This document shows, one piece after another, positions 7,811 through 37,193 of a DNA stretch of 64,000 nt (position 1 is its first letter; each line of letters starts with the position of its first letter). The position numbers were made by a program, and so were the translations under genes. Below the pieces are notes generated by a model. It searched no databases. It saw only the letters and a list, made by a program, of their open reading frames with translations, and was not told the origin of the DNA. This DNA is from Candidatus Nomurabacteria bacterium GW2011_GWC2_42_20 (lineage in GTDB: Bacteria > Patescibacteriota > Minisyncoccia > Phycocordibacterales > UBA1550). The DNA lies in the NCBI GenBank assembly GCA_000998425.1, contig LCDG01000001.1, positions 10,558-74,557 of the forward strand, written 5' to 3'.

Positions 7811-7914
7811 GGTAGAATATTGAAATGAGAATACAGAATGCAGAATGTTTAAACAGAAGTGGATACGGCGGCTATTGCAAAATTTAACATAAATGTTATT
7901 ATACAAATTCATAT

Positions 7915-9707: not shown

Positions 9708-9834
9708 TCATTTTAAAAAACATTAATCAAATATTGCTGACTTAAAAGTAACTAATTCTAATTCTTAACTTTTTTAATTATAGCAATAATAATACTGTTT
9801 GTCAACAGTATTGCAGAATGATATACTCAGCTTA

Positions 9835-10725
9835 ATGATTTTAACAAAAGAAGAAATGCGTGCAAAAATAAATGATCTCGAGGCTAGTATGTCCGATGTT
9901 GATTTTTGGACGGACAAGACTAAGGCACAGGCTGTTATAAAGGAAATTGCAGAGCTTAAAGAAAAAATTGCCGGTGTCGGCAAATATGATCGCGGTAATG
10001 CAGTAATGACTATTTTCTCCGGCGCAGGCGGGGATGACTCGGAAGATTTTTCTGGAATGCTCCTTCGTATGTACTTGAAGTTTTTTGAAAAGCAAAATTT
10101 TGAAGCAAAGCTTCTTCACGAAAATAAGAACGACCATGGTGGATATCGCAATATCACACTCGAAATCCATGGGAAAAATGCATACGGAATGCTAAAAAAT
10201 GAATCAGGTGTCCACCGTCTTGTTCGTATTTCGCCATTCAACGCAAAGAAGCTTCGGCATACATCGTTTTCAATGGTTGAAGTTATTCCAGATTTCAGGG
10301 ATAGCGGAAGTGATGAGATGGTTATTCCTGCTGATGATATAAAGATTGAGTTTAGTCGTTCGTCTGGTCCTGGTGGGCAAAATGTAAACAAGCGCGAGAC
10401 TGCAGTGCGTGTGGTACACGTTCCCACAGGAATAGCCGTGCATGTCGAAACCGAGCGCTCTCAGGAGCAAAATCGTGAAAAGGCAATTCAGATACTAAAA
10501 GGAAAACTCTTTAAAAAACAGGACGATGAAAGAAAGGCAACTGAGAGTGGCATGTATATCAGTAAGACTACAGAAATAGAATGGGGGAATCAAATTCGCT
10601 CATATGTACTTCACCCGTACAAGATGGTGAAGGATCATCGTACTAATGTAGAGACATCAAACGTTGACGCAGTGTTAGAAGATGGCGAGATAATGCAATT
10701 CATTGAAGCAGAACGTGATTTATAA
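9835..10725 (+). CDS. prfB: peptide chain release factor 2 (single frame, no programmed frameshift; short domain 1)
   Basis: SPF tripeptide in RISPFNAKKLRHTSF, GGQ in SSGPGGQNVNKRETAVRV. The ATG at 9835 is in frame; an alternative TTG lies at 9799. No CUU-UGA slippery site was found upstream. Confidence 0.85.
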   Translation: MILTKEEMRAKINDLEASMSDVDFWTDKTKAQAVIKEIAELKEKIAGVGKYDRGNAVMTIFSGAGGDDSEDFSGMLLRMYLKFFEKQNFEAKLLHENKNDHGGYRNITLEIHGKNAYGMLKNESGVHRLVRISPFNAKKLRHTSFSMVEVIPDFRDSGSDEMVIPADDIKIEFSRSSGPGGQNVNKRETAVRVVHVPTGIAVHVETERSQEQNREKAIQILKGKLFKKQDDERKATESGMYISKTTEIEWGNQIRSYVLHPYKMVKDHRTNVETSNVDAVLEDGEIMQFIEAERDL

Positions 10726-12397: not shown

Positions 12398-14056
12398 ATG
12401 AAAAAGAAAACACGCAAGTATATTTTTGTGGTAGGTGGCGTGATTTCTGGAGTCGGCAAAGGGATAACAACTTCCTCTATTGGCAAGATATTGCAGTCTC
12501 ATGGGTATAGGGTAACGGCAATGAAGATTGACCCATATGTGAACGTGGACGCTGGCACGATGAACCCGACTGAGCACGGCGAAGTGTTTGTGCTCAAAGA
12601 CGGCGACGAGACGGATCAGGACATGGGTAATTATGAGCGCTTTCTTGAGACCTCTCTCTCGCGTGATAATTACATGACGACTGGGCGTGTGTACCTCTCG
12701 GTCATTGAAAAAGAGCGGGCACTCGCATACAAGGGTAAGTGCGTGCAGGTTGTGCCACATATTCCATACGAGGTGATTAACCGTATAAATAACGCGGTAG
12801 ACAAGGCAAATGCCGAGATTGTCGTTATTGAGGTCGGAGGTACTGTAGGCGAGTACGAGAATATTCTTTTTCTCGAAACGGCTCGAATGCTTAAAATCAA
12901 AAACCCAGATGATGTACTTTTCGCCATTGTGAGTTATTTGCCTACTCCTTCAAAGGTAGGGGAGATGAAAACAAAGCCTACACAGCATGCAGTACGTGCT
13001 CTCAATAGTGCCGGGATTCAACCAGATTTTATTATTGCGCGTAGCGATATTGCGCTAGATAATAAGCGCAAAGAAAAACTCGCGCTTTTTTGCAATGTAC
13101 TTCCTGAAAGCGTAATATCTGCTCCCGATGTAGATAGTATCTATGACGTTCCAGTGAACTTTGAAAAAGATAAGCTTGGTGAAAAAATTTTGAAGCGTCT
13201 AAATCTAAAATCACGCGGCACGACAGCTGTATGGAAAGAATGGGAAGCATTTGCGCGTAAGGCAAATAAAGTGAAAGATGAGGTGCGTATTGCTGTAGTT
13301 GGAAAATATTTTGATACTGGTGATTATGTTCTCTCAGACTCATATTTGTCGGTTATCGAAGCACTCAAATATTCAGCCATTCACCAAGGTAAAAAAGCAA
13401 AACTCGTATGGCTCAGTGCAGATACTTTTGAAGGAAAGAACCCACCACTTGCAGAGCTTATTGGGTTTGATGGCATACTTATTCCAGGAGGCTTTGGTTC
13501 GCGAGGTGTAGAAGGGAAGATTAATGTTATTCGTTTTGCACGAGAGCACAAGATTCCATACTTTGGTATTTGTTATGGTATGCAGCTAGCCGTCATTGAG
13601 TATGCGAGAAACGTACTTGGTTTCAATGACGCAACTTCACGCGAGATTGACCCAAAATCAAAACATATAGTCATTGATATTATGGAAGGACAAAAAGAAA
13701 ATATTAAAAGTGGTAATCTTGGTGGGAGCATGCGTCTAGGAGCATACGAAGCAGTGCTCAAAAAAGGAACAATAGCGCGCAACGTATATGGCGAAGACAG
13801 GATCGTTGAGCGACACAGGCATCGCTTTGAAGTGAACCCAGAATACATTGAAGCCCTTGAGTCAAAGGGGCTCGTATTCTCAGGCAGATCACCGGATGGT
13901 AGACTCATGGAAATTGCCGAGCTACCAGCAAGCGTACATCCCTTCTTCCTTGGCGCGCAGTTTCATCCAGAGTTTGAGGCGCGTCCTCTAGCAACACATA
14001 AACTTTTTTCCGCGTTTATAAAAGCGGCCATTGTTCGTAATAAAAAGGTTAAATAG
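12398..14056 (+). CDS. pyrG: CTP synthase
   Basis: 552 aa; N-terminal synthetase P-loop VVGGVISGVGKGI; C-terminal glutamine amidotransferase with FGICYGMQLAVIEYARNVLG and the HPEF motif. Confidence 0.95.
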   Translation: MKKKTRKYIFVVGGVISGVGKGITTSSIGKILQSHGYRVTAMKIDPYVNVDAGTMNPTEHGEVFVLKDGDETDQDMGNYERFLETSLSRDNYMTTGRVYLSVIEKERALAYKGKCVQVVPHIPYEVINRINNAVDKANAEIVVIEVGGTVGEYENILFLETARMLKIKNPDDVLFAIVSYLPTPSKVGEMKTKPTQHAVRALNSAGIQPDFIIARSDIALDNKRKEKLALFCNVLPESVISAPDVDSIYDVPVNFEKDKLGEKILKRLNLKSRGTTAVWKEWEAFARKANKVKDEVRIAVVGKYFDTGDYVLSDSYLSVIEALKYSAIHQGKKAKLVWLSADTFEGKNPPLAELIGFDGILIPGGFGSRGVEGKINVIRFAREHKIPYFGICYGMQLAVIEYARNVLGFNDATSREIDPKSKHIVIDIMEGQKENIKSGNLGGSMRLGAYEAVLKKGTIARNVYGEDRIVERHRHRFEVNPEYIEALESKGLVFSGRSPDGRLMEIAELPASVHPFFLGAQFHPEFEARPLATHKLFSAFIKAAIVRNKKVK

Positions 14057-16360: not shown

Positions 16361-16401
16361 GTGAAAAATTGTGTTTTTAGGCAGATTTTCACGGTTATGG
16401 T
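16361..16401 (+). repeat. hairpin repeat copy A (9-bp perfect inverted repeat ccgtgaaaa/ttttcacgg, followed by ttatg)
   Basis: ccgtgaaaaattgtgtttttaggcagattttcacggttatg; a homologous copy lies at 17104-17143. Confidence 0.5.
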
Positions 16402-16478
16402 TGCAAAAGAGTGAAAATTCCCGTAGGACGAATAAAGAATTGCAAGTTGATACTTATGTTATACTACCTCAAATAAAC

Positions 16479-16880
16479 ATGAAAAAAGATTATAAAGAGT
16501 GGCACTCGAAGAAATCAGAAATTAGTGAAATCAAAAAGAGCCCCTTCTTTCACGAGCGCGAAATTTGGTTTTGTTACCTTGGTTCGAATATAGGTTTTGA
16601 GCAAGACGGAGGGGAGGAATTTTTGAGACCTGTTGTTGTTTTTCGTAAGTTCAACAACGAAATCTTTTGGGCGATTCCACTTACAAAGTCAAAAAAGAAG
16701 CTAAACAAAAAGACGGAGTGTTATTATTACTCATTTTCATTCATACCTGAGGTTACGAGCCTCGCGATATTGTCACAAATTCGTTTAGTTGACGCAAAGA
16801 GACTAAGTCGTCACATTGGTACAATGCCCGAAGAAAGCTTTGATGAACTAAAGAAAAAACTCAAAGCATTAATACCTTGA
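16479..16880 (+). CDS. PemK/MazF-family endoribonuclease toxin-like protein with a ~25-aa N-terminal extension; no cognate antitoxin ORF detected
   Basis: The segment ...EIWFCYLGSNIGFEQDGGEEFLRPVVVFRKFNNEIFWAIPLTKSKKK... and the C-terminal ...LSQIRLVDAKRLSRHIGTMPEESFDELKKKL follow the Kid/PemK pattern (GEIW...G.EQ.G.RPvvV...P.T...R..D...R.....VPE...E.L..L). The track ORF from 16371 uses a GTG start; the first ATG is at 16479. Confidence 0.6.
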   Translation: MKKDYKEWHSKKSEISEIKKSPFFHEREIWFCYLGSNIGFEQDGGEEFLRPVVVFRKFNNEIFWAIPLTKSKKKLNKKTECYYYSFSFIPEVTSLAILSQIRLVDAKRLSRHIGTMPEESFDELKKKLKALIP

Positions 16881-17103
16881 GTTTCTCTTTTTCCTCTACC
16901 TTGCGGCAGAGTCGGGCCGAAGCCGTTTGTAAGTAAAATATACACTACTTACGAAAGAATTGCAAATTTTTCAAGCTGAGTTATCCACAGGCAAGGAAAT
17001 GAATGAGTATTTTTAGGCAACAAAAACCGCATTCTAAAATGCTACTTTTGTTAGAGGTGGTGGTCTCACGCAATAACTTATGAAGGCACTTTTGCATAAT
17101 AAC

Positions 17104-17143
17104 TATGAAAATTATGTTTCTAGGCACATTTTCATAGTTATGC
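17104..17143 (+). repeat. hairpin repeat copy B (10-bp perfect inverted repeat, followed by ttatg)
   Basis: ctatgaaaattatgtttctaggcacattttcatagttatg. Partial extra copies (ataacttatgaagg, catgaaaatttctaagca) lie nearby. Confidence 0.5.
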
Positions 17144-17319
17144 TAACGAAAACATGAAAATTTCTAAGCACCCCTTTTTTGAAGTTTTAAATACAAAAGG
17201 TGGTGGAAGAAATTCTTTTGCCAACAGCCTCACTTAATTTTCTTAGATTGATAGTGGACTTTTTGTAATAAAAATTTATTAGGGGTATACTTTGAGTTAC
17301 CAACACGGCTTATAATTTT

Positions 17320-17667
17320 ATGCAAAAAATCGAAGATTTAACCACCAGAATAACGGCTTTCAGGGATGCGAGAGACTGGAAGCAATTCCATAACCCAAAA
17401 GACTGTGCAATTTCGCTTGCGCTTGAAGCGGCAGAAGTACTAGAGCATTTTCAGTGGAAAAACAAGGAGGAAATGGAAGTTTATGCAAAAACAAACAAAG
17501 AAGAAATAAGCGAAGAGTTAGCTGATGTTTTGTATTGGGTTCTTTTGATGAGTAAGGATCTTGACATCGATGTATTAGAGGCTCTACATAAAAAAATGAA
17601 GAAGAATGAAGATAAGTATCCAGTTGAAAAAGCAAAGGGCAAACATACTAAGTATACTGAACTATAA
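17320..17667 (+). CDS. MazG-like nucleoside triphosphate pyrophosphohydrolase (all-alpha NTP-PPase)
   Basis: 115 aa ...DWKQFHNPKDCAISLALEAAEVLEHFQWK...ISEELADVLYWVLLMSKDLDIDVLEALHKKMKKNEDKYP, the MazG/YpjD pattern (E.EL.DVL..L.......I.L). A TATAAT box sits 12 nt upstream of the ATG. Confidence 0.8.
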   Translation: MQKIEDLTTRITAFRDARDWKQFHNPKDCAISLALEAAEVLEHFQWKNKEEMEVYAKTNKEEISEELADVLYWVLLMSKDLDIDVLEALHKKMKKNEDKYPVEKAKGKHTKYTEL

Positions 17668-17670
17668 AAT

Positions 17671-19692
17671 ATGTCAGAAATTAAAACTTTTCAATTTGAT
17701 AAAGATAAATTTGAACAAATAAGAAGTTACAAGTTTGGTAGAAACTGGCCTGTCGTGTATGTTATCGAAGACGGGAAGGAGCTCTATATTGGGGAGACCA
17801 CAAGTGTGTATTCGAGAAGTAAACAACACCATGAAAATCCAGATAGGGCAAAACTTAATAGAATTCATATCATTACAGATGATGAATATAATAAATCTGC
17901 AACATTAGATATTGAATCTCTGCTAATTCAATATATCTCTGCCGAAGGCACATTTAAAATTCAAAACGGTAATGATGGGCTAAGAAATCATAATTATTTT
18001 GATAAGGAAAAATATAGAGCAAAATTTGAATCTACGTGGGAGAAGCTGAAAGAGATGGCGCTTGTGAAGCAGGATTTGGTCCAGATAAAAAATAGCGACT
18101 TATTTAAGTATTCTCCATACAAGGCCCTGACCGAAGACCAACTGATGGTTGTAAAATGTATTTCTAAAAATTTGGAGGCAAACAAGGAAAAGACTTATAT
18201 AATCAATGGCAAGCCAGGGACTGGAAAAACAATCCTCGCTGTTTACCTAATTAAGTATTTGAAAGAAAATAAAAAAACGAAACACCTAAATGTTGCATTA
18301 GTTGTTCCAATGACGTCGCTAAGGAAAACCATTAGAAAAGTATTTTCCAAAGTTGCTGGATTGAAGTCTAGTATGGTTGTCGGACCTAATGAAGTAGTAA
18401 ATAAGAATTACGATATTCTGATAGTTGATGAGGCTCACAGGTTAAAACAGAGAAAGAATATCGCCAACTATAGGTCATTCGACATCACAAATAAAAAACT
18501 CGGTTTTGATAATTCAGGCACGGAACTAGACTGGATAATGAAATCCTCGAAACAACAGATTTTTTTCTATGATAAGAATCAAACAATAAGACCAACGGAC
18601 GTAAGGCCTGATAAATTTAACAAACTTGGTGCTATTCATTACGACTTAGTCAGTCAGCAAAGAATAAGCGCAGGGGAGGAATACATTAATTTTATTGATG
18701 ACCTATTTGATCTTAAGGACCTCAGAAAATATACTTTCCCAGATTATGATTTTCAAATTTATGATGATATTCATAAAATGGTTGAGGATATAAAGAACAA
18801 GGATGCAGAAATGAAACTTTGTAGAATGGTTGCTGGTTACGCTTGGCCGTGGAATTCAAAGAAAAATATAAATAATCACGATATAGAAATTGATGGATTG
18901 AAGATGTTTTGGAATAGTACGAACCAAGATTGGGTAAATTCAAAAAATGCTATAAATGAAGTTGGTTGCATCCATACTGTGCAGGGCTATGATCTAAATT
19001 ACATTGGTGTAATAATTGGGCCTGAAATCTCATATGATGAAGGGAATAGAAAATTGATAGTTAATCCTGATAACTATTTAGATGCAAATGGATGGAAAGG
19101 CATCAATGATCCTGATGAACTCGAAAGATACATTATAAATATTTACAAAACGCTCCTAACCCGAGGCATAAAAGGTGCTTATGTTTATATTGTGGATAAA
19201 AAGCTAGCCAAGTATTTCAGAGATAATATTAAATTAAATAGACAAATAAGTAACACCGCAGCAAAAGAAAAAATTGTTTCTCCATATGCCATAGAAATGA
19301 TCAGCGTGCCACTTCTCGGTATGGCTCCATGTGGCGCTCCGTTTAATGCAGAAGAAAACACTGATGAAATGATCCTTGTTCCAAAAAGTAAAATTCAGCG
19401 TGGCATAGAGTATTTCATTCTGCGTGCTACAGGAGACTCTATGAATAAAGTTGGAATAAATGATGGTGACCTAGTACTCTGTAAGCAAAAATTAACTGCA
19501 CATGAAAATGACAAAGTTGTTGCCTTAATTGGAGACAGAGTGACGATTAAGGAATTTCATCGAGATGGAGCACAGATTGTGCTTAGACCCAGATCTACAA
19601 ATCCGGAGCATCGAGATATTTATCCTGATGAAGATGTTCAAGTTCAAGGTATAGTATTGGAAGTAATAAACAGATTTGAGTATGAAGAATAA
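17671..19692 (+). CDS. tri-domain fusion: GIY-YIG nuclease + DUF2075 (Schlafen-like P-loop NTPase) + C-terminal LexA/UmuD-type S24 self-cleaving peptidase
   Basis: The GIY-YIG motif is WPVVYVIEDGKELYIGETTSVYSRSKQH. The ATPase has Walker A INGKPGTGKT, Walker B ILIVDEAHRL and a later IHTVQGYDLNYIGVIIG segment. The C-terminal ~130 aa read VPLLGMAPCGAPF...ILRATGDSM..GINDGDLVL...KVVALIGDRVTIKEFHRDG..IVLRPRS.NPEH, aligning with LexA/UmuD (Ser in GDSM, Lys in TIKEF, UmuD-like Cys-Gly cleavage site). Confidence 0.7.
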   Translation: MSEIKTFQFDKDKFEQIRSYKFGRNWPVVYVIEDGKELYIGETTSVYSRSKQHHENPDRAKLNRIHIITDDEYNKSATLDIESLLIQYISAEGTFKIQNGNDGLRNHNYFDKEKYRAKFESTWEKLKEMALVKQDLVQIKNSDLFKYSPYKALTEDQLMVVKCISKNLEANKEKTYIINGKPGTGKTILAVYLIKYLKENKKTKHLNVALVVPMTSLRKTIRKVFSKVAGLKSSMVVGPNEVVNKNYDILIVDEAHRLKQRKNIANYRSFDITNKKLGFDNSGTELDWIMKSSKQQIFFYDKNQTIRPTDVRPDKFNKLGAIHYDLVSQQRISAGEEYINFIDDLFDLKDLRKYTFPDYDFQIYDDIHKMVEDIKNKDAEMKLCRMVAGYAWPWNSKKNINNHDIEIDGLKMFWNSTNQDWVNSKNAINEVGCIHTVQGYDLNYIGVIIGPEISYDEGNRKLIVNPDNYLDANGWKGINDPDELERYIINIYKTLLTRGIKGAYVYIVDKKLAKYFRDNIKLNRQISNTAAKEKIVSPYAIEMISVPLLGMAPCGAPFNAEENTDEMILVPKSKIQRGIEYFILRATGDSMNKVGINDGDLVLCKQKLTAHENDKVVALIGDRVTIKEFHRDGAQIVLRPRSTNPEHRDIYPDEDVQVQGIVLEVINRFEYEE

Positions 19693-19717
19693 ATAATATT
19701 GAATCTAAAAAATAATT

Positions 19718-20497
19718 ATGGAAAAACTTTCTTATTCAAAAAAACTTTATTACAAGGCCGGCGTAAAACTCTTGATTTTTCCGATCCTAGCAATGATTTT
19801 AGGAATTAGTTTTTTTGTTTATGGTATTGATAACGCGATCGCACTTGGTGTTCCGTTGGCTGGACTTGTTGGTTTTGGTCTCGGGTTTATCCTCTTCCCA
19901 CTAAGTGAGCGAGTCCAAACAATATTTGATAAAAAAATTGACCACATCTATTCAAAATATGCAGACCCGATTATAGATGATAGAGATGCAGCAAAACGAG
20001 GAATAGACGGAGAAAGCATTGTCTTTGGCTGGCTTAATGAAATTCTTACTGATAAATCGTGGTCAATATATAAAAATGTAGAATTTACAGCAGGCGACAA
20101 AAATAAATTTGACATAGATGCCATAGTGGTCGGCCCGAAAGGAATTTTTGTATTTGAGATAAAGAATTTGTCATATGACTTTTTCTTTACTTCACATGAC
20201 TGTGATGTGGTGGTGGGTGAACAAATTCGACCATGCTCTCAAAAAGACCCGCGAATACAGATTGCTCAAAATGCAGAGATATTAGAAAAGAAACTGAAGG
20301 CAAGTGGCTTTAATGGAGTAAAAACGAAGCGCGCAGTTGTGTTTGCTCGACCAGAATCCATTCGGTTTCTCGGGAGCACTACAGTCTTTTTGATAGATAA
20401 TAAGGAAACTTTAAAGAGGTATATGCTCGAACAGTATGATGACCTGAGGTTTACGCCTGAGTTTTGTGAAAAAGTAAAAGAGGCAATTTTGTCATAA
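19718..20497 (+). CDS. membrane-anchored NERD (nuclease-related domain) protein
   Basis: 259 aa; two N-terminal TM helices, then GIDGESIVFGWLNEIL...KFDIDAIVVGPKGIFVFEIKNLSY...QIAQNAEILEKKLK, matching the NERD pattern (G..GE...L..L...DiD.vvv...GifviEvKn). Confidence 0.65.
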   Translation: MEKLSYSKKLYYKAGVKLLIFPILAMILGISFFVYGIDNAIALGVPLAGLVGFGLGFILFPLSERVQTIFDKKIDHIYSKYADPIIDDRDAAKRGIDGESIVFGWLNEILTDKSWSIYKNVEFTAGDKNKFDIDAIVVGPKGIFVFEIKNLSYDFFFTSHDCDVVVGEQIRPCSQKDPRIQIAQNAEILEKKLKASGFNGVKTKRAVVFARPESIRFLGSTTVFLIDNKETLKRYMLEQYDDLRFTPEFCEKVKEAILS

Positions 20498-20610: not shown

Positions 20611-20798
20611 TAATTTTATCTAAAAAGGTTCCAGCTTTGTCCCAAACTCCCAGCCAAGAAATAGTATCGCATAGTGTTTATCGAGGCATGATACTGAGAC
20701 GCAAGACATTACCTAAACATAGGATTTGTATTCGTGGTCTTTGCTGCTCACTAATATCTAGAGTATAATTTGGTTGTTATCAGTTAATTACTAATTAT

Positions 20799-21266
20799 AT
20801 GGATACCAAAGTAAAAATTTCCGCAGTAGCACTTCGCTTGCTTTTGGGTTGGTTCATGTTTTTTGATGGACTTGGTATTCTTCTTAATCCAAATTTTACA
20901 GCTACTGGTTTTCTTACAAACGCAAAAACTTTTCAAGGTTTTTATTCATGGTTTGCGCTTCCGATGAATATTTGGTGGGTTGATTTTATTACTCCATTGG
21001 CAATTATTCTTATAGGTGTTTCTCTTTTGGTAGGGGTTGGCGTGCGACTAGCGTCGTGGGCAGGTGCCTTTCTTATGATTATCTATTATTTCCCACATTA
21101 TTATTTTCCAATTGTTACATACGGATACATTGTTGAAGAACATATCATTTACGCAGCAGTCTTTGTTCTAATAGCGCTTTGGACTCCTGCTCAGGAATTT
21201 GGTTTTAGCGGAGTTCTAAAGCGTTCTTTCTTGGGCCGCGTTTCATTTTTACGCTCGATTCTGTAG
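20799..21266 (+). CDS. DoxX-family membrane protein
   Basis: 155 aa with four TM helices; N-terminal ...ALRLLLGWFMFFDGLGIL..., typical of DoxX; TATAAT box at ~20762. Confidence 0.65.
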   Translation: MDTKVKISAVALRLLLGWFMFFDGLGILLNPNFTATGFLTNAKTFQGFYSWFALPMNIWWVDFITPLAIILIGVSLLVGVGVRLASWAGAFLMIIYYFPHYYFPIVTYGYIVEEHIIYAAVFVLIALWTPAQEFGFSGVLKRSFLGRVSFLRSIL

Positions 21267-21358
21267 CTATTAGTCGGTTTTGCAATTAAAAACACAAGCA
21301 CCAATCCGGCAATACCAGTTTGGTGCTTGTGTTTTTGTGGTACCATATTAATAATACG

Positions 21359-22207
21359 ATGAAAAAGATTATGCGCGTTATTTTGGTTGTCGCAGTTGTG
21401 GGGGTAGTTTTCCTTATGCTTTCCTACACAAGCAGTCACAATATGGGCGTGTTCAACCCGAAGGGAACAATTGCCCATGCGGAAATGAACCTTATTGTCA
21501 CGACAACGCTACTCATGCTTATTGTGGTTATCCCTGTATTCGTTATGCTCGCAATTTTTTCATGGAGATACAGGGCTGGTAATACGAAGGCAAAGTATTC
21601 TCCAGACTGGCATAAAAGTATCGCGTTGGAAGTGATTTGGTGGATAATACCAATAATAATTATTGCTATTATTGCAAGGATGACGTGGATTAGTAGTCAT
21701 GATCTTGATCCATATAAACCGATTGCTTCAAGTGTTGTTCCAATTACAATAGAGGTTGTTGCTCTTGAGTGGAAATGGCTGTTCATTTATCCGGATCAAA
21801 ACATCGCTACTTTGAATTTTGTACAATTGCCAATTGATACACCTATTAATTTTAGGATAACTGGCGACGCACCGATGAATTCATTTTGGATTCCCCAGCT
21901 TGCGGGACAAATATATGCAATGGAGAAAGGGGACTATGCAGGTGTTTCCGCAAACTACAGTGGATTTGGGTTTTCGGGAATGAAGTTTACAGCGAGGGCG
22001 AGCTCGCAAGACGAGTTTGAACAGTGGGTGCGAACAGTTCGTATGTCACCAAGCACACTTAGTATTGATGAATACACCAAGCTTGCAGAAAAAAGTAGGA
22101 ATAATGATGTCTCGTACTACTCATCTGTTCACAAAGGTTTGTATGATAAAATAATAATGAAATTCATGGTGCCAGCGAATGTAATAATGACGAAAATGAA
22201 TATGTAA
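21359..22207 (+). CDS. cyoA: cytochrome o/bo3-type ubiquinol oxidase subunit II (no CuA site)
   Basis: Two N-terminal TM helices plus a cupredoxin-like domain ...[25 protein letters not shown]... lacking the CuA Cys/His ligands, resembling quinol-oxidase subunit II. ATG at 21359; the track uses TTG at 21320. Confidence 0.8.
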
Positions 22208-22211
22208 TATT

Positions 22212-24164
22212 ATGTTTGGAAACCTCACACTCTCTGCGCTCCCACATGAACCAATCACCGTTGGAGCTGGTATTTTTATGGCTATCGCTGGCTCAAGCAT
22301 TATAGGACTTTTGTTTTATTTCAAGCGCTGGAGGTGGCTTTGGGCAGAATGGCTCACATCAGTAGATCATAAAAAGATCGGTGTGATGTACATCATTTTG
22401 GCTTTCGTGATGCTTCTCCGCGGCTTTTCTGATGCCGTAATGATGCGATTACAGCAAATATTGTCAGTCGGTGATTCTGTGGGGTATTTGCCACCAGAGC
22501 ATTACGACCAAATATTTACGGCACACGGAGTGATCATGATCTTTTTTGTTGCGATGCCGCTCATGTTTGGGTTAATCAACCTGGCGGTGCCACTTCAGAT
22601 CGGAGCGAGAGATGTTGCTTTTCCTTTTCTCAACTCGATGAGCCTTTGGCTCACTGTTTTTGGCGCGATGTTGGTAAACTTGTCGCTTGTAGTGGGGGAG
22701 TTTGCGGCGACTGGGTGGCTCGCATACCCGCCACTTTCGGGCATTGTGTATAGTCCTGGTGTAGGGGTGGACTATTATATTTGGGCGCTACAGATTGCAG
22801 GTGTCGGAAGCTTGATCTCTGGAATAAATTTCTTTGTAACTATACTTATGATGCGTTGCAAGGGGATGACACTCATGAGGATGCCAGTTTTTGTGTGGAC
22901 CGTCCTTGCTTCTATGACGCTCGTTATTATTTCTTTTCCAATTCTTACAGCCACGCTCGGAATGCTCTCATTGGATAGGCTTCTCGGAATGCATTTTTTT
23001 ACGTCGGACTTTGGCGGGAATGCAATGATGTATGTGAACCTTATTTGGGCGTGGGGGCATCCTGAGGTATATATTCTCGTATTACCAGCATTCGGTATTT
23101 TTTCTGAAGTTGTTTCAGTATTTTCACGCAAGAAACTTTTTGGATATACATCGATGATCTACGCGACAGTTGCTATTACGTTTTTGTCATTTGTGGTTTG
23201 GGTACACCACTTCTTTACGATGGGCGCTGGCGCAAATGTAAATGCTTTCTTTGGCATCATGACAATGATCATTGCCATACCAACTGGTGTGAAGGTTTTT
23301 AATTGGCTATTCACAATGTTTCGCGGACGCATCGTGTTTGCATCGCCAATGCTCTGGATGATTGGGTTTATTTTTACATTCACAATAGGTGGGATGACAG
23401 GAGTTTTGCTTTCCGTGCCAGCTGCTGATTTTCAGCTACACAACAGTTTATTTTTAGTCGCGCATTTTCACAATACGATTATCGGTGGTGTAGTATTCGG
23501 ATACTTTGCTGGGATCACATATTGGTTTTCAAAGATTTTTGGCTTCAAATTGAATGAACGACTCGGCAAGGCTGCCTTTTGGCACTGGATTGTAGGCTTT
23601 TTTGTAGCGTTTGTACCTCTTTATATTCTTGGTCTAATGGGAATGACGAGACGCATAAGCCATATAGATGAATCTACTGGATGGCAGACACTTTTGATCG
23701 TTGCTGGTATCGGTGTAGTAATTATCGGCATCGGTGTCCTGCTACAAATTTTGCAAATGATTGTAAGTATCCGCGACCGCAAGCACAACATGGATACGAC
23801 CGGAGATCCATGGGACGGTAGGACTTTGGAGTGGTCTACATCTTCACCTCCGCCTTTCTATAACTTTGCTATTATCCCAACAGTGCACGGTCGCCACCCT
23901 TTTTGGGATACGAAGTATGGCGAATCCGAACAGGTTGCTCCACACTATGAGGATATTGAAATGCCGAGTAATACGCCGATGGGTTTGTACATTGCATTTG
24001 CGAGCGTGGTATTTGGCTTTGCAATCGTGTGGCATATCGTATGGTTAGTGGTGTTAGCGTTTGCAGCTATTTTGGCGCTTCTTATTGCGCGTTCACTTGA
24101 TTACAATACTGAGTATGTTGTGAAGGCAGAGACGATCGCAAAAATTGAAGCTAAAAGAAAATAA
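22212..24164 (+). CDS. cyoB: heme-copper quinol oxidase subunit I
   Basis: 650 aa, ~14 TM helices; conserved [22 protein letters not shown] and HFHNTIIGG motifs (heme and CuB His ligands). Confidence 0.95.
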
Positions 24165-24165
24165 T

Positions 24166-24780
24166 ATGAAAGAAGAAACACTAAATCATAACAGTTTCCG
24201 ACCAGGGCGTGAGTCTGCTGACGGAGAAGCGAAGGCAATCTTCGGTTTCTGGGTATATATTATGAGTGACACACTTTTGTTTGCTGCTATCTTTGCTACA
24301 CATGCAGTGCTTCACAATAATACCTTCGATGGTCCGTCGGCAAAGGAGCTTGTTAATATGACATTTGTTTTGACTGAGACACTCGTTCTTCTCGCAAGTA
24401 GTTTTGCGTTTGGTATTGCTTCTACATATGCGCATCATCATAATAAGAAAAATATTGTACTTGTATGGATCAGTGTCACATTTCTTCTAGGCGCAGCATT
24501 TATTGGGATGGAGATGACGGAGTTTGCAAAGCTTTTTCAAGAAGGGAATAGTTGGCAGAGGAGCGGATTTTTATCAGGTTTCTTTACCCTTATTGGTACG
24601 CACGGGCTGCATGTGACTGCAGGTCTCATTTGGATGGTGAGTGTATTTGCTCAGGTATTGAAGTATGGGCTCACAGACAGAACAATAGGGAGAATATCAA
24701 CACTAGGACTATTTTGGCATTTCCTCTACATCGTGTGGATATTTATATTCACCCTTGTTTATCTTATGGGGGTAATATAA
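24166..24780 (+). CDS. cyoC: quinol oxidase subunit III
   Basis: ~200-aa 5-TM protein at the subunit-III position in the operon; ...LGLFWHFLYIVWIFIF... fits the subunit III C-terminus. Confidence 0.85.
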   Translation: MKEETLNHNSFRPGRESADGEAKAIFGFWVYIMSDTLLFAAIFATHAVLHNNTFDGPSAKELVNMTFVLTETLVLLASSFAFGIASTYAHHHNKKNIVLVWISVTFLLGAAFIGMEMTEFAKLFQEGNSWQRSGFLSGFFTLIGTHGLHVTAGLIWMVSVFAQVLKYGLTDRTIGRISTLGLFWHFLYIVWIFIFTLVYLMGVI

Positions 24781-24787
24781 AAATACT

Positions 24788-25171
24788 ATGACAAACAATT
24801 TTGAAGTCATTGATGAACGATATGAAGCAAGTCACCATGCATTTAAATCATATGCCATTGGGTTTGTGTTGTCTCTTTTGTTCACAATTGTTCCGTATTT
24901 TCTAGTTATCAAACGCCTGTTTGGTGACCAGAGCCTAATATTGGCGGTGGTTTTTTTCGCCGTCGCACAGTTTTTTGTACAGGTAGTATTCTTCCTTCAT
25001 CTTCATAAAAAATCGCGACCGCGTTGGAATATGATTGTTTTCATTTTTACGATTTTGATTGTCGCAATTTTGGTCGTAGGGTCTCTGTGGGTCATGCGTA
25101 ACCTAGATTACAACATGACGAAAGTGTTCGATCTGAACACAAATGAAGGGTATATGCTAGAAAAAAAATGA
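24788..25171 (+). CDS. cyoD: quinol oxidase subunit IV
   Basis: 127-aa 3-TM protein at the subunit-IV position. Confidence 0.7.
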   Translation: MTNNFEVIDERYEASHHAFKSYAIGFVLSLLFTIVPYFLVIKRLFGDQSLILAVVFFAVAQFFVQVVFFLHLHKKSRPRWNMIVFIFTILIVAILVVGSLWVMRNLDYNMTKVFDLNTNEGYMLEKK

Positions 25172-26031
25172 TCAAAGATTATTATTTCATAACAAAACCA
25201 GGAATTATAGGAGGCAACGCAATTACTGCTATTGCTGGTTTTTTACTTGCATCTAGAGGGGATATCAATTGGCTCATTCTCTTCGCGACACTTGCTGGGC
25301 TTTCTCTTGTTGTTGCATCAGGATGCGTTTTTAACAATTACATCGACCGCGACATTGATGCAATCATGGAGCGTACAAAAAACCGCACAATGGCACAAGG
25401 GCGGTCATCTCTTAGAAGCGCACTCGTGTATGCGTCGGTGCTTGGACTAACCGGTCTTGGTATTTTATATTTTTATACAAATTTTTTAGCGATGGCAGCC
25501 GCACTTATAGGGCTCTTTGTTTATGTAGTTGGATATAGTTTGTGGCTCAAGCGCACTTCTACCATTAGCGCCATTATTGGAAGTGTCTCTGGAGCTATGC
25601 CTCCAGTTGTGGGGTATCTTGCGGTGACTGGAAACATTGACCTAGGTGCTGTCATTATATTTTTTATTCTCGCGTTTTGGCAGATGCCCCATTCGTATGC
25701 AATTGCCATATATCGGCTCAGGGATTATACAAATGCGAGTATCCCCGTTTTACCAGCAGAAAAAGGAATTTATATGACAAAGGTGCATATGCTTATTTAT
25801 GTTGCCCTTTTTGTAATGGCAAGTTTGGCGCTGTCTGTATTTGGTTATGCAGGGCAGCTTTATTTTTGTGCAATGATATTGTTTGGATTCGCGTGGTTCC
25901 TCCTGTGTGTTAAGGGTTTCTTCATTAAAACAACTAATAATAAAAAATGGGCGCACAGCATGTATATTTTTTCAATCATTATTATTGCAATGTTTTTCCT
26001 AGTTGTTTTGGTTGAGGCGCTACAGATATAG
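25168..26031 (+). CDS. cyoE: protoheme IX farnesyltransferase (heme O synthase)
   Basis: 287 aa, UbiA-family; ...YIDRDIDAIMERTKNRTMAQG... (D-rich prenyl-diphosphate-binding motif). It overlaps cyoD by 4 nt. Confidence 0.9.
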   Translation: MIKDYYFITKPGIIGGNAITAIAGFLLASRGDINWLILFATLAGLSLVVASGCVFNNYIDRDIDAIMERTKNRTMAQGRSSLRSALVYASVLGLTGLGILYFYTNFLAMAAALIGLFVYVVGYSLWLKRTSTISAIIGSVSGAMPPVVGYLAVTGNIDLGAVIIFFILAFWQMPHSYAIAIYRLRDYTNASIPVLPAEKGIYMTKVHMLIYVALFVMASLALSVFGYAGQLYFCAMILFGFAWFLLCVKGFFIKTTNNKKWAHSMYIFSIIIIAMFFLVVLVEALQI

Positions 26032-26059
26032 TGTGAGAGTTGCGCTATTATGGTAAAAT

Positions 26060-28562: not shown

Positions 28563-29705
28563 ATGAAGGTTGCATTTATACACAACGAAAAAAAGATAGG
28601 GACTGGCGCGCATTATATTAATGACCTGATGTCTTCGAAGCTCAAGGGTATGGGTGTAGAGATAAAGAATTTTTATCCACGAACTTCTTTTGATGCGCCA
28701 ATGCACTTGAGTGGGCTAAAAAACATACTCTTTTTTCATTCTCTGATTGAGAAGAGAAACGAAATTCTTAAATTTGATCTGATACAAGGTACTACATATA
28801 CACCGCTCCCTTTTCTGGCATACCCAATCCCAGTTATTTCTCACTTTGGATCTACAACTAATGGCTTTTTGAATACTACCCCTTTGGCTAGCCAGCTCGA
28901 GGATGGTCCACGCGATGTATGGTATGGGCTTAAAAAAGCAAAAGTAATAAAGGAGTTGAACATAAGAACACGACGACCCCTTAGGGATATCGCGGAAATT
29001 GAAGAACTTGTAGCCATAAAAGCTGACGCAATCATTGCAACTTCAGTTAATGTTAAAAACGAACTTATCGCAATCGGTGTAGATGAAGAAAAAATACACA
29101 TGATTCATAATGCAATTGAGGATTATTGGTTTGATAACAGTAATACTAAAATTGTCGATGAGCCACAAATCGTTTTTCTTGGAAGGATTGGAAATGACGC
29201 ATTTAATTTAAAATTAAAAGGACTCGATAGACTTATTCATCTATATAACCAGTTCAAGGATGTTAAAAAAACCACGATATGTATGACTACAAACAAGGGT
29301 GTTGTTTCGTGGTTGATGGATAATATCCCTAATCATTCCCTGTTTGTAAATATGAAGAAGGACAGAATCCCGGAGACAGTAAAAAATCTTAGGGGTAGTA
29401 TTTTATTTCTTTCTTCTCGGTATGAAGGATTTTCACTAAGCCTTATCGAAGGCATGTCGCAAGGGTTGGTTCCTGTAGCGTACCCTGTCGGTGTTGCGCC
29501 AGAGATTATTCGCAATGGAGAAAATGGTTTTCTTGTCTCATCTCAATCTGAAGCAGTTGAAAAAATAAAAATACTTTTAGCTAATCCGGAGCTTAGAAAA
29601 AAGTGTGTAATAGAAGCAGAGAAGACAGCCAGAAATTTTTCAGGTTCTGAGATAACAAAAAAATTGATAAAACTTTATGAAAAGATTGGAAGGAAGAGAC
29701 AGTAG
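28563..29705 (+). CDS. GT-B glycosyltransferase (family 1 / GT4-like)
   Basis: 380 aa; C-terminal ...SRYEGFSLSLIEGMSQGLVPVAYPVGVAPEIIRNGENGFLV... is the EX7E-type motif of GT4 enzymes. Confidence 0.8.
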   Translation: MKVAFIHNEKKIGTGAHYINDLMSSKLKGMGVEIKNFYPRTSFDAPMHLSGLKNILFFHSLIEKRNEILKFDLIQGTTYTPLPFLAYPIPVISHFGSTTNGFLNTTPLASQLEDGPRDVWYGLKKAKVIKELNIRTRRPLRDIAEIEELVAIKADAIIATSVNVKNELIAIGVDEEKIHMIHNAIEDYWFDNSNTKIVDEPQIVFLGRIGNDAFNLKLKGLDRLIHLYNQFKDVKKTTICMTTNKGVVSWLMDNIPNHSLFVNMKKDRIPETVKNLRGSILFLSSRYEGFSLSLIEGMSQGLVPVAYPVGVAPEIIRNGENGFLVSSQSEAVEKIKILLANPELRKKCVIEAEKTARNFSGSEITKKLIKLYEKIGRKRQ

Positions 29706-33830: not shown

Positions 33831-36026
33831 TTGTGTTATTATATTTGCATGAAAGAAACACTCTACACGTGTCCGATGCATTCGAACATTGTGCGCACAG
33901 AGCCTGGTATGTGTCCAGAGTGTGGGATGAGCCTCGTGCCAGCGCGAGCGTGGAAGGACGCGGATGATACGCGGACAGTCGCTGAAGGCAATCCGCATAG
34001 TCCTGATTCTATTCCGCATAAGCATGCGTCAAGTCCGCATAGTTCCGCATTTACTAAGCATGAGGGGCATCATACTGCAGAATTTTTGAAAAAGTTTTGG
34101 ATAGTGCTTGCGCTAACGATCCCAATTCTCGTTTACTCTGAAATTTTTGCGCGCGCATTCACGTGGACCCCACCTCAGTTTATTGGTGTGCAATACGCAA
34201 TACTCGCACTCGGTTCGACAGTGTTTTTTTACGGCGGTTTGGTTTTTTTGCTTGGTGCGTACCGTGAACTTCGCGCGGGTCTTCCAGGAATGATGACGCT
34301 CATCGCGCTTGCGATTACGGCGGCATATTCGTTCAGTATTTTTTCTGTTTTGACTGGTAGCGAACATACGCTTTTCTGGGAACTCTCTACGCTTATCGCC
34401 GTGATGCTTCTGGGTCACTGGATAGAGATGAAGGCGGTACAGGGAGCGCAGGGAGCGCTCAAGGAACTCGCAAAACTTTTACCAGATACAGCCGAGGTGT
34501 TGCGTGACGGCTCTACAGAAACTGTTTCCATTTCAGAACTCCGCGTAGGCGACCGAGTGCTCGTGCGCCCTGGCGCAAAAGTGCCAGCTGACGGTGTCGT
34601 TGTGGAGGGTCGCTCTGAGCTTGATGAATCCATTATCACTGGTGAATCAAAGCTTATCTCAAAAGAAATCGATTCCGAGGTAATCGCTGGATCCATCAAT
34701 GGTGACGGCAGCCTCACAATAGAAGTGAAGAAAATCGGCGAGGGAACATTTCTTGCTGGTGTGATGCGCTTGGTGGCGGATGCGCAAGCGAGCAAGTCAC
34801 GTCTGCAGATTCTTTCCGACCGTGCAGCGCTTTATTTGACTGTCATAGCTGTTGTGGCTGGCACGGCCACATTTATCGCATGGATTTTTGCGAATGCCGG
34901 AGTTGTATTTGCAACTGAACGCCTTGTCGCGGTCCTCGTGATTACTTGCCCGCATGCGTTAGGTCTCGCTGTACCGTTGGTCGCGTCAATATCCACCACT
35001 ATGGCCGCACGCAATGGGTTCCTTGTGCGACAGCGTATTGCTCTTGAGTCAGCGCGAGCTATAGATATTGTGCTTTTTGATAAAACGGGGACGCTTACGC
35101 AAGGAGCTTTTGGCGTACATGCAATTATTCCTACTGGTTCGTTTAATGATATTGATGTGCTTAAAAAAGGCGCTGAGCTTGACCAGGGGTCCGAACATCC
35201 TCTAGCAAAGGCAATAGTTGTGGAGGCGCGCAGGCGAGGAGTTGTGCTAGAATCGATGAATAATTTTGAGCGTGTTGCGGGCAAAGGTGCGCGTGGAGAT
35301 GTGGGCGGAGAGACAGTGCTCATAGGAAATGAGTCGTTTATGAACGAGGTGGCAATTGTTGTCGCAGAAGAGTTCCTGCTAAAGACTCGCGCGCTTGAAA
35401 GCGAAGGTAAAACTGTTATTTTTGTAGCATCGCAGGGGCACCTTGTTGGTGCCATCGCTCTCGCAGATATTATCCGACAGGAATCTCGTGAGGCAATACA
35501 ATCGCTCCGTAAGCTTGGCATTCGCACCGCTATGATCACCGGAGACTCGCCTGATACAGCAAAATGGGTTGCGCGCGAGCTCGGTATAGACGAATATTTT
35601 GCACGCGTGCTTCCAGGGGAAAAGTCCGAGAAGGTAAAAATACTACAAGCACAGGGGCATAAAGTTGCGATGGTGGGGGACGGGGTCAATGACGCGCCAG
35701 CGCTCACTCAGGCCGATCTCGGTATTGCCATTGGCGCTGGCACTAACGTCGCTATTGAGTCAGCTGGCATTATTTTAGTACGTAATGACCCTCGCGATAT
35801 TCCAAAAATCATTCGCCTCTCACAGCTCACTTACACAAAGATGATTCAGAATCTTTTCTGGGCGACAGGGTACAATCTCATCGCGCTCCCTCTGGCGGCA
35901 GGTGTACTCGCGTACAAGGGTGTTATTTTGCAACCTGCAGTCGCAGCAGTTTTTATGAGCGCGTCTACCGTCATTGTGGCGATAAACGCACTATTGCTCA
36001 GAAGGAATAATTTGAGTACCATATAA
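33831..36026 (+). CDS. copB: copper-transporting P1B-type ATPase, CopB-like (His-rich N-terminus, CPH motif)
   Basis: N-terminal Cys-rich metal-binding segment YTCPMHSNIVRTEPGMCPECGM and a His-rich stretch HSPDSIPHKHASSPHSSAFTKHEGHH. TM region carries CPH (ITCPHALGLAVP). DKTGTLT, GDGVNDAPAL and TGD motifs are present. Confidence 0.9.
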   Translation: MCYYICMKETLYTCPMHSNIVRTEPGMCPECGMSLVPARAWKDADDTRTVAEGNPHSPDSIPHKHASSPHSSAFTKHEGHHTAEFLKKFWIVLALTIPILVYSEIFARAFTWTPPQFIGVQYAILALGSTVFFYGGLVFLLGAYRELRAGLPGMMTLIALAITAAYSFSIFSVLTGSEHTLFWELSTLIAVMLLGHWIEMKAVQGAQGALKELAKLLPDTAEVLRDGSTETVSISELRVGDRVLVRPGAKVPADGVVVEGRSELDESIITGESKLISKEIDSEVIAGSINGDGSLTIEVKKIGEGTFLAGVMRLVADAQASKSRLQILSDRAALYLTVIAVVAGTATFIAWIFANAGVVFATERLVAVLVITCPHALGLAVPLVASISTTMAARNGFLVRQRIALESARAIDIVLFDKTGTLTQGAFGVHAIIPTGSFNDIDVLKKGAELDQGSEHPLAKAIVVEARRRGVVLESMNNFERVAGKGARGDVGGETVLIGNESFMNEVAIVVAEEFLLKTRALESEGKTVIFVASQGHLVGAIALADIIRQESREAIQSLRKLGIRTAMITGDSPDTAKWVARELGIDEYFARVLPGEKSEKVKILQAQGHKVAMVGDGVNDAPALTQADLGIAIGAGTNVAIESAGIILVRNDPRDIPKIIRLSQLTYTKMIQNLFWATGYNLIALPLAAGVLAYKGVILQPAVAAVFMSASTVIVAINALLLRRNNLSTI

Positions 36027-36031
36027 GGACT

Positions 36032-36415
36032 ATGGAATTTGATTACACAAAAATCACAACGAAAAGTTTTAACGATGCCGTTCAAGCTGTGCAGGATGAG
36101 ATTGCAAAAGCAGGTATGCGGGTTTTGTATGTTCATGATGTGCAACAATCACTCATTGAAAAGGGGTTCACGCGAGACTCATTCAAAATTGTTGAATTCT
36201 GCAACGCTAAATACGCGAATGATTTTTTGAATGCGGATATTAAAATAGGACTTTGTATGCCGTGCAAAATAAATGTGTACGTCAAAGATGGTCAAACGCA
36301 TATCTCTGGCATGCGACCAATCATTCTCTCACAATTTTTCACGAATGCGGACTTGGGTGACAAGCCAAAAGAAGTTGATCAAATTATTCAAAATATAATC
36401 AATAACACAAAGTGA
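36032..36415 (+). CDS. DUF302-family protein
   Basis: 127 aa; ...GFTRDSFKIVEFCNAKYANDFLNADIKIGLCMPCKINVYVKDGQTHISGMRP matches the DUF302 pattern (E.CNP..A........LPCR..VY..DG). Confidence 0.65.
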   Translation: MEFDYTKITTKSFNDAVQAVQDEIAKAGMRVLYVHDVQQSLIEKGFTRDSFKIVEFCNAKYANDFLNADIKIGLCMPCKINVYVKDGQTHISGMRPIILSQFFTNADLGDKPKEVDQIIQNIINNTK

Positions 36416-36477
36416 GGCTATTAAGGAATCCTGTTATTTGCCACTGGAACCAGTAGGGATATCGGGATACAAATAAC

Positions 36478-37185: not shown

Positions 37186-37193
37186 TATAAGTT

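Follow-up and report, generated by a model that had tools for sequence, protein, structure and literature searches.

A bo3-type quinol oxidase operon, apparently an old acquisition, in a Parcubacteria genome window without visible quinone biosynthesis

INTRODUCTION

What does a quinol oxidase do in a member of the candidate phyla radiation (CPR) whose sequence holds no obvious pathway for making quinone? The question is raised by a stretch of 64,000 nucleotides from contig LCDG01000001.1 of Candidatus Nomurabacteria bacterium GW2011_GWC2_42_20, referred to here as the window, in which a gene for a DoxX-family protein is followed by the genes cyoABCDE. A preliminary description of the window had read these six genes as one complete bo3-type oxidase operon in a reduced, CPR-like genome, and had considered scavenged quinone, O2 detoxification and horizontal acquisition as explanations. 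Our analysis indicates that the oxidase is real and that this outline interpretation is correct, and also that it is already known.

RESULTS

The cyo genes encode a bo3-type quinol oxidase

Proteins of the window's open reading frames (ORFs) were assigned to families by Pfam gathering scores and NCBIfam equivalog cutoffs. Judged by these assignments and by its functional residues, the region encodes a bo3-type quinol oxidase of the A-type heme-copper family and not a cytochrome c oxidase. The whole CyoA protein contains zero cysteines, so that a binuclear CuA centre is impossible, and CyoB keeps the quinol (QH) site R71/D75/H98/Q101 (E. coli numbering). Both results bear out the earlier assignment as a quinol rather than a cytochrome c oxidase.

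Two related enzyme types were considered and rejected. For a cytochrome c oxidase (aa3, CoxABC), the CuA ligands are absent and the scores stay below the cutoffs of CoxB (TIGR02866, 92.5 < 147.7) and CtaD (578.8 < 670.75). For the aa3-600 menaquinol oxidase, the scores are too low for QoxB (806 < 1015), QoxA (158 < 241), QoxC (177 < 240) and QoxD (37 < 86), and all four window subunits score lower on the Qox models than on the Cyo models. The Bacillus subtilis QoxABCD enzyme (PDB 6KOB) resembles the window enzyme in being an A-type heme-copper oxidase of four subunits that oxidises quinol and lacks CuA, but the window proteins fall well below all Qox equivalog cutoffs and match the Cyo models.

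CyoB of the window aligns end to end with the structures of E. coli bo3 subunit I (residues 1-647, E = 1e-292, ~65% identity). Twenty functional sites of the E. coli protein were mapped by program onto the window CyoB and 70 homologs with at least 72% identity. All 20 are kept in the window, and 19 are invariant in all 71 sequences; only D407 varies, with N in 3 homologs. In E. coli numbering, the conserved ligands are H106/H421 of heme b, H419 of heme o3 and H284/H333/H334 of CuB, together with the cross-linked tyrosine Y288, and R481/R482 also belong to the conserved residues. The D-channel residues D135/N124/N142/E286, the K-channel residues T359/K362 and the quinol site, which corresponds to R70/D74/H97/Q100 of the window protein, show no exception in 71 of 71 sequences.

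E. coli CyoABCDE (PDB 1FFT, 6WTI, 7CUB, 8F68) agrees with the window in its five genes, in their order and in junctions that are tight or overlap, and its heme and CuB ligands, Y288, both proton channels and the QH site are all shared with the window CyoB. Its CyoA (1FFT_B), like that of the window, has no CuA ligands and carries the COX_ARM motif at its C-terminus. In contrast to the E. coli protein, the window CyoA has a histidine at the position of the lipobox residue C25, and thus no lipobox cysteine, and it also lacks 12 residues of the cupredoxin domain. The two systems differ further in their setting: the window belongs to an ultra-small CPR bacterium and holds no quinone or respiratory genes among its scanned ORFs of at least 110 aa, and upstream of its cyo genes a terminator-like hairpin precedes a promoter-like element with a short leader.

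All six open reading frames of the preliminary description were recovered on the plus strand (Table 1). CyoE additionally passes TIGR01473 (277.9 against 210.3) and matches Pfam UbiA, so the statement that heme O synthase is co-encoded holds. The word 'complete' is only partly justified: cyoB to cyoE score above their equivalog cutoffs, whereas CyoA lacks the 12 conserved residues and scores below its cutoff. The start of cyoC is placed at either 24166 or 24145 by gene callers. The junctions are tight, with 4 nt between cyoA and cyoB, an overlap or 1 nt between cyoB and cyoC, 7 nt between cyoC and cyoD and a 4-nt overlap between cyoD and cyoE, which fits a single cyoABCDE transcription unit. 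The promoter-like box downstream of cyoE likely marks the boundary of this putative unit.

Table 1. Features of the oxidase region, with positions in the window and the evidence for each
Feature	Position	Strand	Evidence
DoxX-family membrane protein, 155 aa	20799..21266	+	PF07681 25.8 bits (gathering 23.6); ~4 transmembrane (TM) segments by hydropathy
Terminator-like hairpin in DoxX-cyoA spacer	21288..21336	+	22-nt arms, 91% complementary, A5 before, U5 after
TG-extended -10-like element TGGTACCAT, candidate cyoABCDE promoter	21338..21346	+	ends 12 nt before cyoA ATG
cyoA, quinol oxidase subunit II	21359..22207 (alternative TTG start 21320)	+	Pfam COX_ARM and COX2_TM
cyoB, subunit I	22212..24164	+	TIGR02843 1101.8 (cutoff 1020.35)
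cyoC, subunit III	24166..24780 (alternative TTG 24145, overlaps cyoB end)	+	TIGR02842 236.1 (cutoff 223.75)
cyoD, subunit IV	24788..25171	+	TIGR02847 108.1 (cutoff 81.45); Pfam COX4_pro
cyoE, heme O synthase (protoheme IX farnesyltransferase)	25168..26031	+	NF003348 358.2 (cutoff 285)
Extended -10-like box TGGTAAAAT	26051..26059	+	motif scan; 1 nt before next gene (hyp207)

The operon appears to be an old, vertically inherited acquisition

The locus was compared with two contigs of the same species (L081, DNLU01000003.1; L082, LCGC01000001.1), two strains (L083, L084), relatives whose CyoB is 86% (L085), 79% (L086) and 74% (L131) identical, a Parcubacteria GWA1_47_8-type contig (L132), a Saccharimonadales contig (L017) and other CPR cyo loci (among them L130 and L133). 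Named CyoB sequences at 70-95% identity were all of Parcubacteria type (Yonathbacteria, Nomurabacteria, Kaiserbacteria, Paceibacterota). Among the matches listed in a search of contigs with CyoB, which were mostly from Proteobacteria, the best non-CPR CyoB proteins came from metagenome-assembled genomes (MAGs) of uncultured Gammaproteobacteria (68-71%) and from enterobacteria (65%).

In a neighbour-joining tree of 69 CyoB sequences, midpoint-rooted and without an outgroup, the window falls into a Parcubacteria clade with 95% bootstrap support. Saccharibacteria and Chlamydiae sequences form another group (96%), and both groups come together with bacterium WB4 and Parcubacteria C7867-007 at 88%; a clade of CPR sequences only has a bootstrap of 0%. 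Type-A oxidases of Patescibacteria have been found nested in a mostly proteobacterial clade, from which horizontal gene transfer was inferred (Beam 2020, PMC7507113).

The preliminary description had proposed a comparison of GC content and codon usage for 20.8-26.0 kb, and no deviation from the host was found. GC of the cyo operon is 0.38-0.44 and GC at third codon positions (GC3) is 0.36-0.46, both inside the range of housekeeping genes. Pooled over cyoA-E, the synonymous-codon distance to the remainder of the window is 0.037, near the lower end of the values for all five-gene blocks (0.031-0.068). For the horizontal acquisition suggested earlier, a Proteobacteria-like origin fits the tree and Beam 2020, and the host-like GC content and codon usage speak against a recent transfer.

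The surroundings of the operon are shared as well. L085 keeps the order FtsX-PyrG-PDDEXK, DoxX, cyoABCD(E) and GDSL-PIF1-CopB-DUF6629, and L086 and L131 keep cyoABCDE followed by GDSL and PIF1. Amino-acid identity to L085 is 86% for CyoB, 88% for PyrG, 87% for PIF1 and 88% for CopB. The cyo genes have dN/dS values of 0.04-0.15 against L085, with dS near saturation. Taken together, these comparisons indicate that the operon is an ameliorated, functionally constrained and vertically inherited part of the lineage. Its acquisition appears to be old, because codon usage is host-like, flanking synteny is shared, divergence parallels that of the neighbours and the clade is supported at 95%.

A 36-bp deletion distinguishes cyoA of the window

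The start of cyoA is probably the ATG at 21359 ('MKKIMRV'), which NCBI uses in two assemblies; the TTG at 21320 is less likely because it lies inside the hairpin. Compared with every other copy of the species, the window cyoA carries a 36-bp in-frame deletion at 21923/21924. The protein thereby loses AGMDTTLHIVAS, whose homologous counterpart in the cupredoxin domain of E. coli CyoA is AGMQTRLHLIAN. Apart from these 36 bp, the window matches L082 at 100% identity over 22 kb, and the segment is intact in all four retrieved contigs of the species. The deleted allele is public only as KKS48342.1 (Candidatus Nomurabacteria GW2011_GWC2_42_20), on one contig of 110,415 bp, and intact alleles are found on at least 20 contigs.

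None of 92 CyoA-bearing loci is gapped in the deleted segment, where an (A/P)GMxTxLH motif is nearly universal. On TIGR01433 (cutoff 266.2) the window CyoA reaches 263.6-264.7, compared with 308.8 for the intact allele. The junction shows 1 nt of microhomology, and flanking repeats are absent. A rare real variant and an assembly artefact are equally possible. If real, the deletion probably impairs subunit II, as judged by the conservation of the lost segment; much less probably, it would then mark ongoing loss of the oxidase in a subpopulation of the anoxic, acetate-amended groundwater.

Other differences between copies of the locus were observed. Single-nucleotide polymorphisms (SNPs) relative to L083 and L084 (57-60 in 22 kb) cluster at 12688-12862, 20790-21071 and 21388-21727, that is in PyrG, DoxX and the 5' half of cyoA, and cyoB-E are essentially identical; this clustering suggests recombination tracts. 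L081, a UBA assembly, lacks ~91 bp at 29092-29184, by which a GT1 glycosyltransferase gene (28563-29705) is split into two ORFs, another indel between assemblies of one species.

DoxX is probably a neighbour and not a part of the oxidase

The spacer between the DoxX stop (21266) and the cyoA ATG (21359) measures 92 nt. A promoter and terminator scan with loops of up to 8 nt gave nothing useful here; folding and a repeat search revealed the hairpin. The spacer fold (101 nt) has an energy of -36 kcal/mol (z = -5.04), none of 200 shuffled sequences folds as well, and strain SNPs are absent from the hairpin at 21288-21336. Analogous hairpins with U-runs lie just 5' of cyoA in L086, L131, L132 and a further locus, L088, whatever the upstream gene, which in L088 is a tRNA. 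In these relatives the hairpin is followed by a TGGTAAAAT, TGGTAATAT or TGCTAAAAT box 10-25 nt before the ATG. The arrangement of these elements makes it plausible that cyoA has a promoter close by, with a very short leader. A TATAAT-like box lies ~35 nt upstream of the DoxX gene.

The pattern TGNTANWAT is enriched in non-coding DNA, with 12 of its 43 matches in the ~10% of the window sequence that is non-coding. It ends 1-20 nt before several tRNA and protein starts, for example at 7894, 8247, 11435, 26051, 33834, 41347(-) and 49133(-), which suggests that many transcripts of this Parcubacterium have a very short leader or none.

DoxX passes its Pfam threshold marginally, and most of its homologs carry a precomputed PF07681 match. 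It belongs to a family of ~155-aa proteins whose named members are all from Patescibacteria/Paceibacterota. Linkage to cyo was examined from both sides, at 42 metagenomic DoxX loci by family alignment and at cyo loci by a family hidden Markov model (HMM). Only 2 of the 42 DoxX loci carry cyo; both are from one organism, with DoxX ~1.5 kb downstream of cyoE. Three DoxX loci on long contigs (L134, from a Paceibacteria genome, L135 and L136) are without cyo and have unrelated neighbours, namely glyoxalase and a major facilitator superfamily protein, an AhpC/thioredoxin fusion, and VIT1. From the cyo side, the HMM places DoxX upstream of cyo in the window species, L085 and L131 and downstream in L088, and a distant DoxX lies downstream of cyoE in L017. 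With the same HMM, no DoxX was found beside cyo in eleven other CPR cyo loci or in ~65 non-CPR, mostly proteobacterial, ones. The linked cases share flanking synteny, which argues for common descent and not for repeated association.

Since a terminator-like hairpin occupies the spacer and most loci of the DoxX family lie apart from cyo, DoxX probably forms a transcription unit of its own beside the oxidase, being neither a subunit nor the first cistron. The preliminary 'doxX-cyoABCD-cyoE operon' is correct in that DoxX adjoins cyoA, but co-transcription is unlikely given the hairpin and the poor linkage.

DoxD- and DoxX-type proteins of other organisms are quinone-linked, as in the Acidianus thiosulfate:quinone oxidoreductase, M. 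tuberculosis DoxX-SseA-SodA and B. subtilis MhqP/CatD. A thiosulfate:quinone oxidoreductase (DoxDA) was rejected for the window, as no DoxA (PF07680) was found in its ORFs of at least 110 aa or in the L134-L136 neighbourhoods. In L134 (4555-5468) the DoxX homolog directly follows a glyoxalase-family gene, an arrangement that resembles the mhqO-mhqP and catD-catE pairing of B. subtilis. By this analogy there is a weak hint that the family handles quinone or catechol-type compounds.

Host genome and neighbours of the cyo genes

The CPR nature of the genome, earlier surmised from gene content, is confirmed: CyoB, GyrA, PyrG and DoxX match deposited proteins of Parcubacteria-group MAGs residue for residue (Parcubacteria GW2011_GWC1_42_11, Candidatus Nomurabacteria GW2011_GWC2_42_20 and a Candidatus Campbellbacteria UBA MAG), and taxid 1618756 belongs to the lineage Patescibacteria group > Parcubacteria group. 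An identical CyoB is present on at least 24 contigs of up to 316 kb, including GCA_000999475.1 and GCA_003489565.1. The window holds LigA, GatA, six tRNAs, a release factor, FtsEX, PyrG, PIF1 and DEAD helicases and GyrA. Many of its small proteins have no Pfam match, and its genes lie almost all on one strand.

Gene content was scanned with Pfam on ORFs of at least 110 aa within the 64-kb window. No family of quinone biosynthesis, NADH dehydrogenase, bc1 complex, succinate dehydrogenase or ATP synthase was among them, so that the earlier remark on missing quinone biosynthesis is borne out within these bounds.

No neighbour of cyo that could serve as electron donor is conserved across the CPR loci compared; the candidates occur in one or two lineages each. 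Upstream of cyo in L086 (5996-8066) lie MsrA/MsrB and a cytochrome b561-like (Ni_hydr_CYTB) protein. L131 has MsrB, a YgaP-like TM protein and a 428-aa Pyr_redox_2 flavoprotein, possibly NDH-2-like, upstream (1-2039), with a large PAS sensor nearby. In L132 (3024-9956), two large genes (981 aa and 362 aa, no Pfam match) stand between cyoA and cyoB, and a VKOR-DsbA pair, a quinone-dependent disulfide system, follows ~5.5 kb downstream. A FAD protein neighbours cyo in L133, and L130 has only cell-envelope genes. MsrA/B, the cytochrome b561-like protein, Pyr_redox_2, VKOR-DsbA and the FAD protein were rejected as the cyo donor, as they are not recurrent. The gene neighbourhoods give a hint of oxidative-stress or thiol-redox contexts.

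Other features of the window

Two further genes of the preliminary description were found as described: the CopB-type Cu exporter is a P-type ATPase (33831-36026) with a CPH motif and a His-rich N-terminus, and the cytochrome b5-like protein (ORF 40904-41332, minus strand) has a Cyt-b5 domain, an HPGG motif and an N-terminal TM segment. The exporter belongs to a cluster (33831-38239) with DUF302, a lycopene-cyclase-domain membrane protein (PF18916), DUF6629 and a small TM protein; the CopB-DUF6629 adjacency also occurs in L085. The carotenoid-cyclase-like domain is unexpected here, where no carotenoid pathway is visible in the genome.

The block at 16371-20497 has a GC content of 0.34-0.37, compared with ~0.42, and the most deviant codon usage of the window. 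Its products are PemK/MazF, a MazG-like protein, a NERD nuclease and a fusion of a Schlafen-type helicase with an S24 peptidase; in L085, NYN, HD_4 and Fic genes occupy the corresponding position. The block resembles a variable islet of defence or toxin genes and lies directly upstream of DoxX. The release factor (9799-10725) has only 308 aa and matches the C-terminal half of PCRF (profile 95-194 of 194). At 57934-62745 a 1603-aa protein is encoded whose sole recognisable domain is an LCAT-like lipase/acyltransferase at residues ~654-817.

DISCUSSION

The explanation that we consider distinctly probable is that the cyo genes encode a resident, anciently acquired bo3 quinol oxidase that serves mainly to consume O2 with quinone from a host or the community. 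On the model of the homologous E. coli enzyme, quinol would bind at R70, D74, H97 and Q100 of the window CyoB. The low-spin heme b (H105/H420) would hand the electrons on to the heme o3-CuB centre (H418; H283, H332, H333; Y287), where O2 would be reduced to water. The D channel (D134, N123, N141, E285) and the K channel (T358, K361) would serve for the uptake and pumping of protons, and CyoE would convert heme B to heme O by farnesylation. The operon would have reached an ancestor of this Parcubacteria lineage long ago, from a Proteobacteria-like donor, and would have been passed on vertically under purifying selection. Because published relatives have neither quinone biosynthesis nor NADH dehydrogenase, the most likely source of the quinone, by analogy, is a host or the community, which would probably supply heme too. 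O2 consumption and re-oxidation of quinol for aerotolerance or redox balance would then be the main role, with proton-motive force as a by-product.

Several observations weigh against this explanation. The donor and the direction of transfer are not rigorously resolved by a neighbour-joining tree rooted at its midpoint. The step from a missing quinone pathway rests on published relatives, with our own scan covering the 64-kb window. The possibly NDH-2-like flavoprotein of L131 lies near cyo, and in Saccharibacteria an NADH dehydrogenase has been reported, according to the accounts in PMC13293708 and PMC9530719. Finally, given the deletion in CyoA, a defective enzyme is possible in this strain. 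The flavoprotein and the reported dehydrogenase also favour a different role, the main rival to O2 consumption, namely a short energy-conserving chain (for example NDH-2 or a flavoprotein to quinone to bo3, with the proton-motive force used by F1Fo) in which respiration is the main function. The invariance of the D- and K-channel residues, which implies that the proton-pumping machinery is maintained, the strong purifying selection on the cyo genes and the complete F1Fo clusters of cyo-bearing Parcubacteria (Nelson & Stegen, PMC4508563) fit such a chain, as does the route from NADH dehydrogenase through ubiquinone to cyo that Lemos 2019, as cited in PMC13293708 and PMC9530719, gave for Saccharimonadia. 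We regard respiration as the main role as unlikely, given that the scanned window ORFs include no dehydrogenase, quinone-pathway or ATP synthase gene and that no cyo neighbour recurs over the CPR loci. A decaying, non-functional oxidase in this strain, with the deletion as a real population variant that disrupts the cupredoxin domain, is possible but doubtful. It would account for the loss of the conserved AGMDTTLHIVAS segment at a site where none of the 92 CyoA loci tolerates a gap, for the fall of the TIGR01433 score by 44 bits to below its cutoff, and for an in-frame junction with 1 nt of microhomology that lacks the flanking repeats expected for a simple mis-assembly. On the other side, the allele is known from a single contig whose flanking 22 kb equal those of an intact-allele contig, the rest of the operon shows no lesion, and some activity might survive since quinol binding and catalysis reside in subunit I.

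A role of DoxX as the dedicated electron input was also weighed, in which this membrane protein would reduce scavenged quinone for bo3 and thereby link an extracytoplasmic or thiol-type reductant to O2 reduction in a DoxX-Cyo module. DoxX-family genes next to cyo in the window species, L085, L131 and L088, the distant one in L017, the label 'thiosulfate dehydrogenase [quinone] large subunit' that JGI gives to family members and the quinone-linked proteins named above speak for it. Nevertheless, both the module and the proposed electron path are highly improbable: a strong terminator-like hairpin and a candidate promoter separate the genes, the linkage tests from the DoxX side and from the cyo side led us to reject DoxX as a conserved module member or electron donor, the linked cases are explained by common descent, and no DoxA partner was found among the scanned window ORFs. 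A recent horizontal transfer, or a contaminating or mis-binned proteobacterial fragment, is barely credible. It would explain why CyoB is 65-71% identical to gammaproteobacterial proteins among the matches listed, which is unusually high for a CPR protein, and why CPR oxidases nest among Proteobacteria. Against it, cyo lies mid-contig (97-316 kb) between CPR housekeeping genes on at least 24 independently assembled contigs, and these many long contigs exclude contamination and mis-binning. GC, GC3 and codon usage match the host, synteny and divergence parallel those of the flanking genes, the Parcubacteria clade is coherent at 95% bootstrap, and in composition it is the defence-like islet at 16.4-20.5 kb that deviates, rather than the operon. 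An old, resident oxidase that mainly consumes O2 thus remains the reading that we prefer.

This reading has clear precedents. Nelson & Stegen 2015 (PMC4508563) described cyo (CytO) in Parcubacteria C7867-007 and -008 and proposed quinone transfer from the host. Castelle 2017 (PMC5220378) noted that several Parcubacteria genomes encode a cytochrome o ubiquinol oxidase, with an inferred O2-scavenging role, and cites Brown 2015 for cytochrome o oxidase in Rifle Parcubacteria. O2 scavenging or detoxification is favoured in PMC9938205, and the oxidase without quinone is taken up again in later surveys and in a 2026 review. As in the window, cyo of C7867-007/-008 and of the Rifle Parcubacteria lies mid-contig with host-like coverage and composition, and quinone biosynthesis and NAD(P)H dehydrogenase are missing. 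O2 scavenging with host-derived quinone has already been proposed for these genomes, and the window itself is from the Rifle aquifer dataset. The C7867-007 CyoB is 66% identical to that of the window and falls outside its Parcubacteria clade, which implies more than one CPR lineage of cyo. The Saccharibacteria (TM7) also have a complete cyoABCDE in the same gene order, interpreted as serving O2 scavenging or occasional respiration (Kantor 2013, Starr 2018 and Lemos 2019, as cited in PMC13293708 and PMC9530719). In these accounts it is reported together with an NADH dehydrogenase-like protein, and its CyoB groups separately with Chlamydiae and not in the clade of the window.

The novelty implied by the preliminary description is consequently not upheld, since the oxidase, the missing quinone pathway, host quinone, O2 scavenging and horizontal transfer are all published (PMC4508563, PMC5220378, PMC7507113, PMC9938205). 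In GenBank, the window genes themselves have carried the annotation ubiquinol oxidase since 2015, with CyoB as 'Ubiquinol oxidase subunit 1'. Nelson & Stegen 2015 (PMC4508563) and the Rifle account in PMC5220378 mention neither the DoxX neighbour nor the hairpin nor the cyoA deletion. Our minor additions are an operon that appears old, ameliorated and constrained, a DoxX gene probably outside it, a putative terminator and short-leader architecture, and the cyoA deletion. Users of KKS48342.1 as a reference should know that it carries this probably damaging in-frame deletion. A proton-pumping O2 reductase in presumed obligate fermenters without quinone, heme and dehydrogenase genes is a physiological puzzle, raised in 2015 for these very genomes and often discussed since; the window poses no new question. 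The puzzle bears on the oxygen tolerance of CPR bacteria and on what they take from their hosts.

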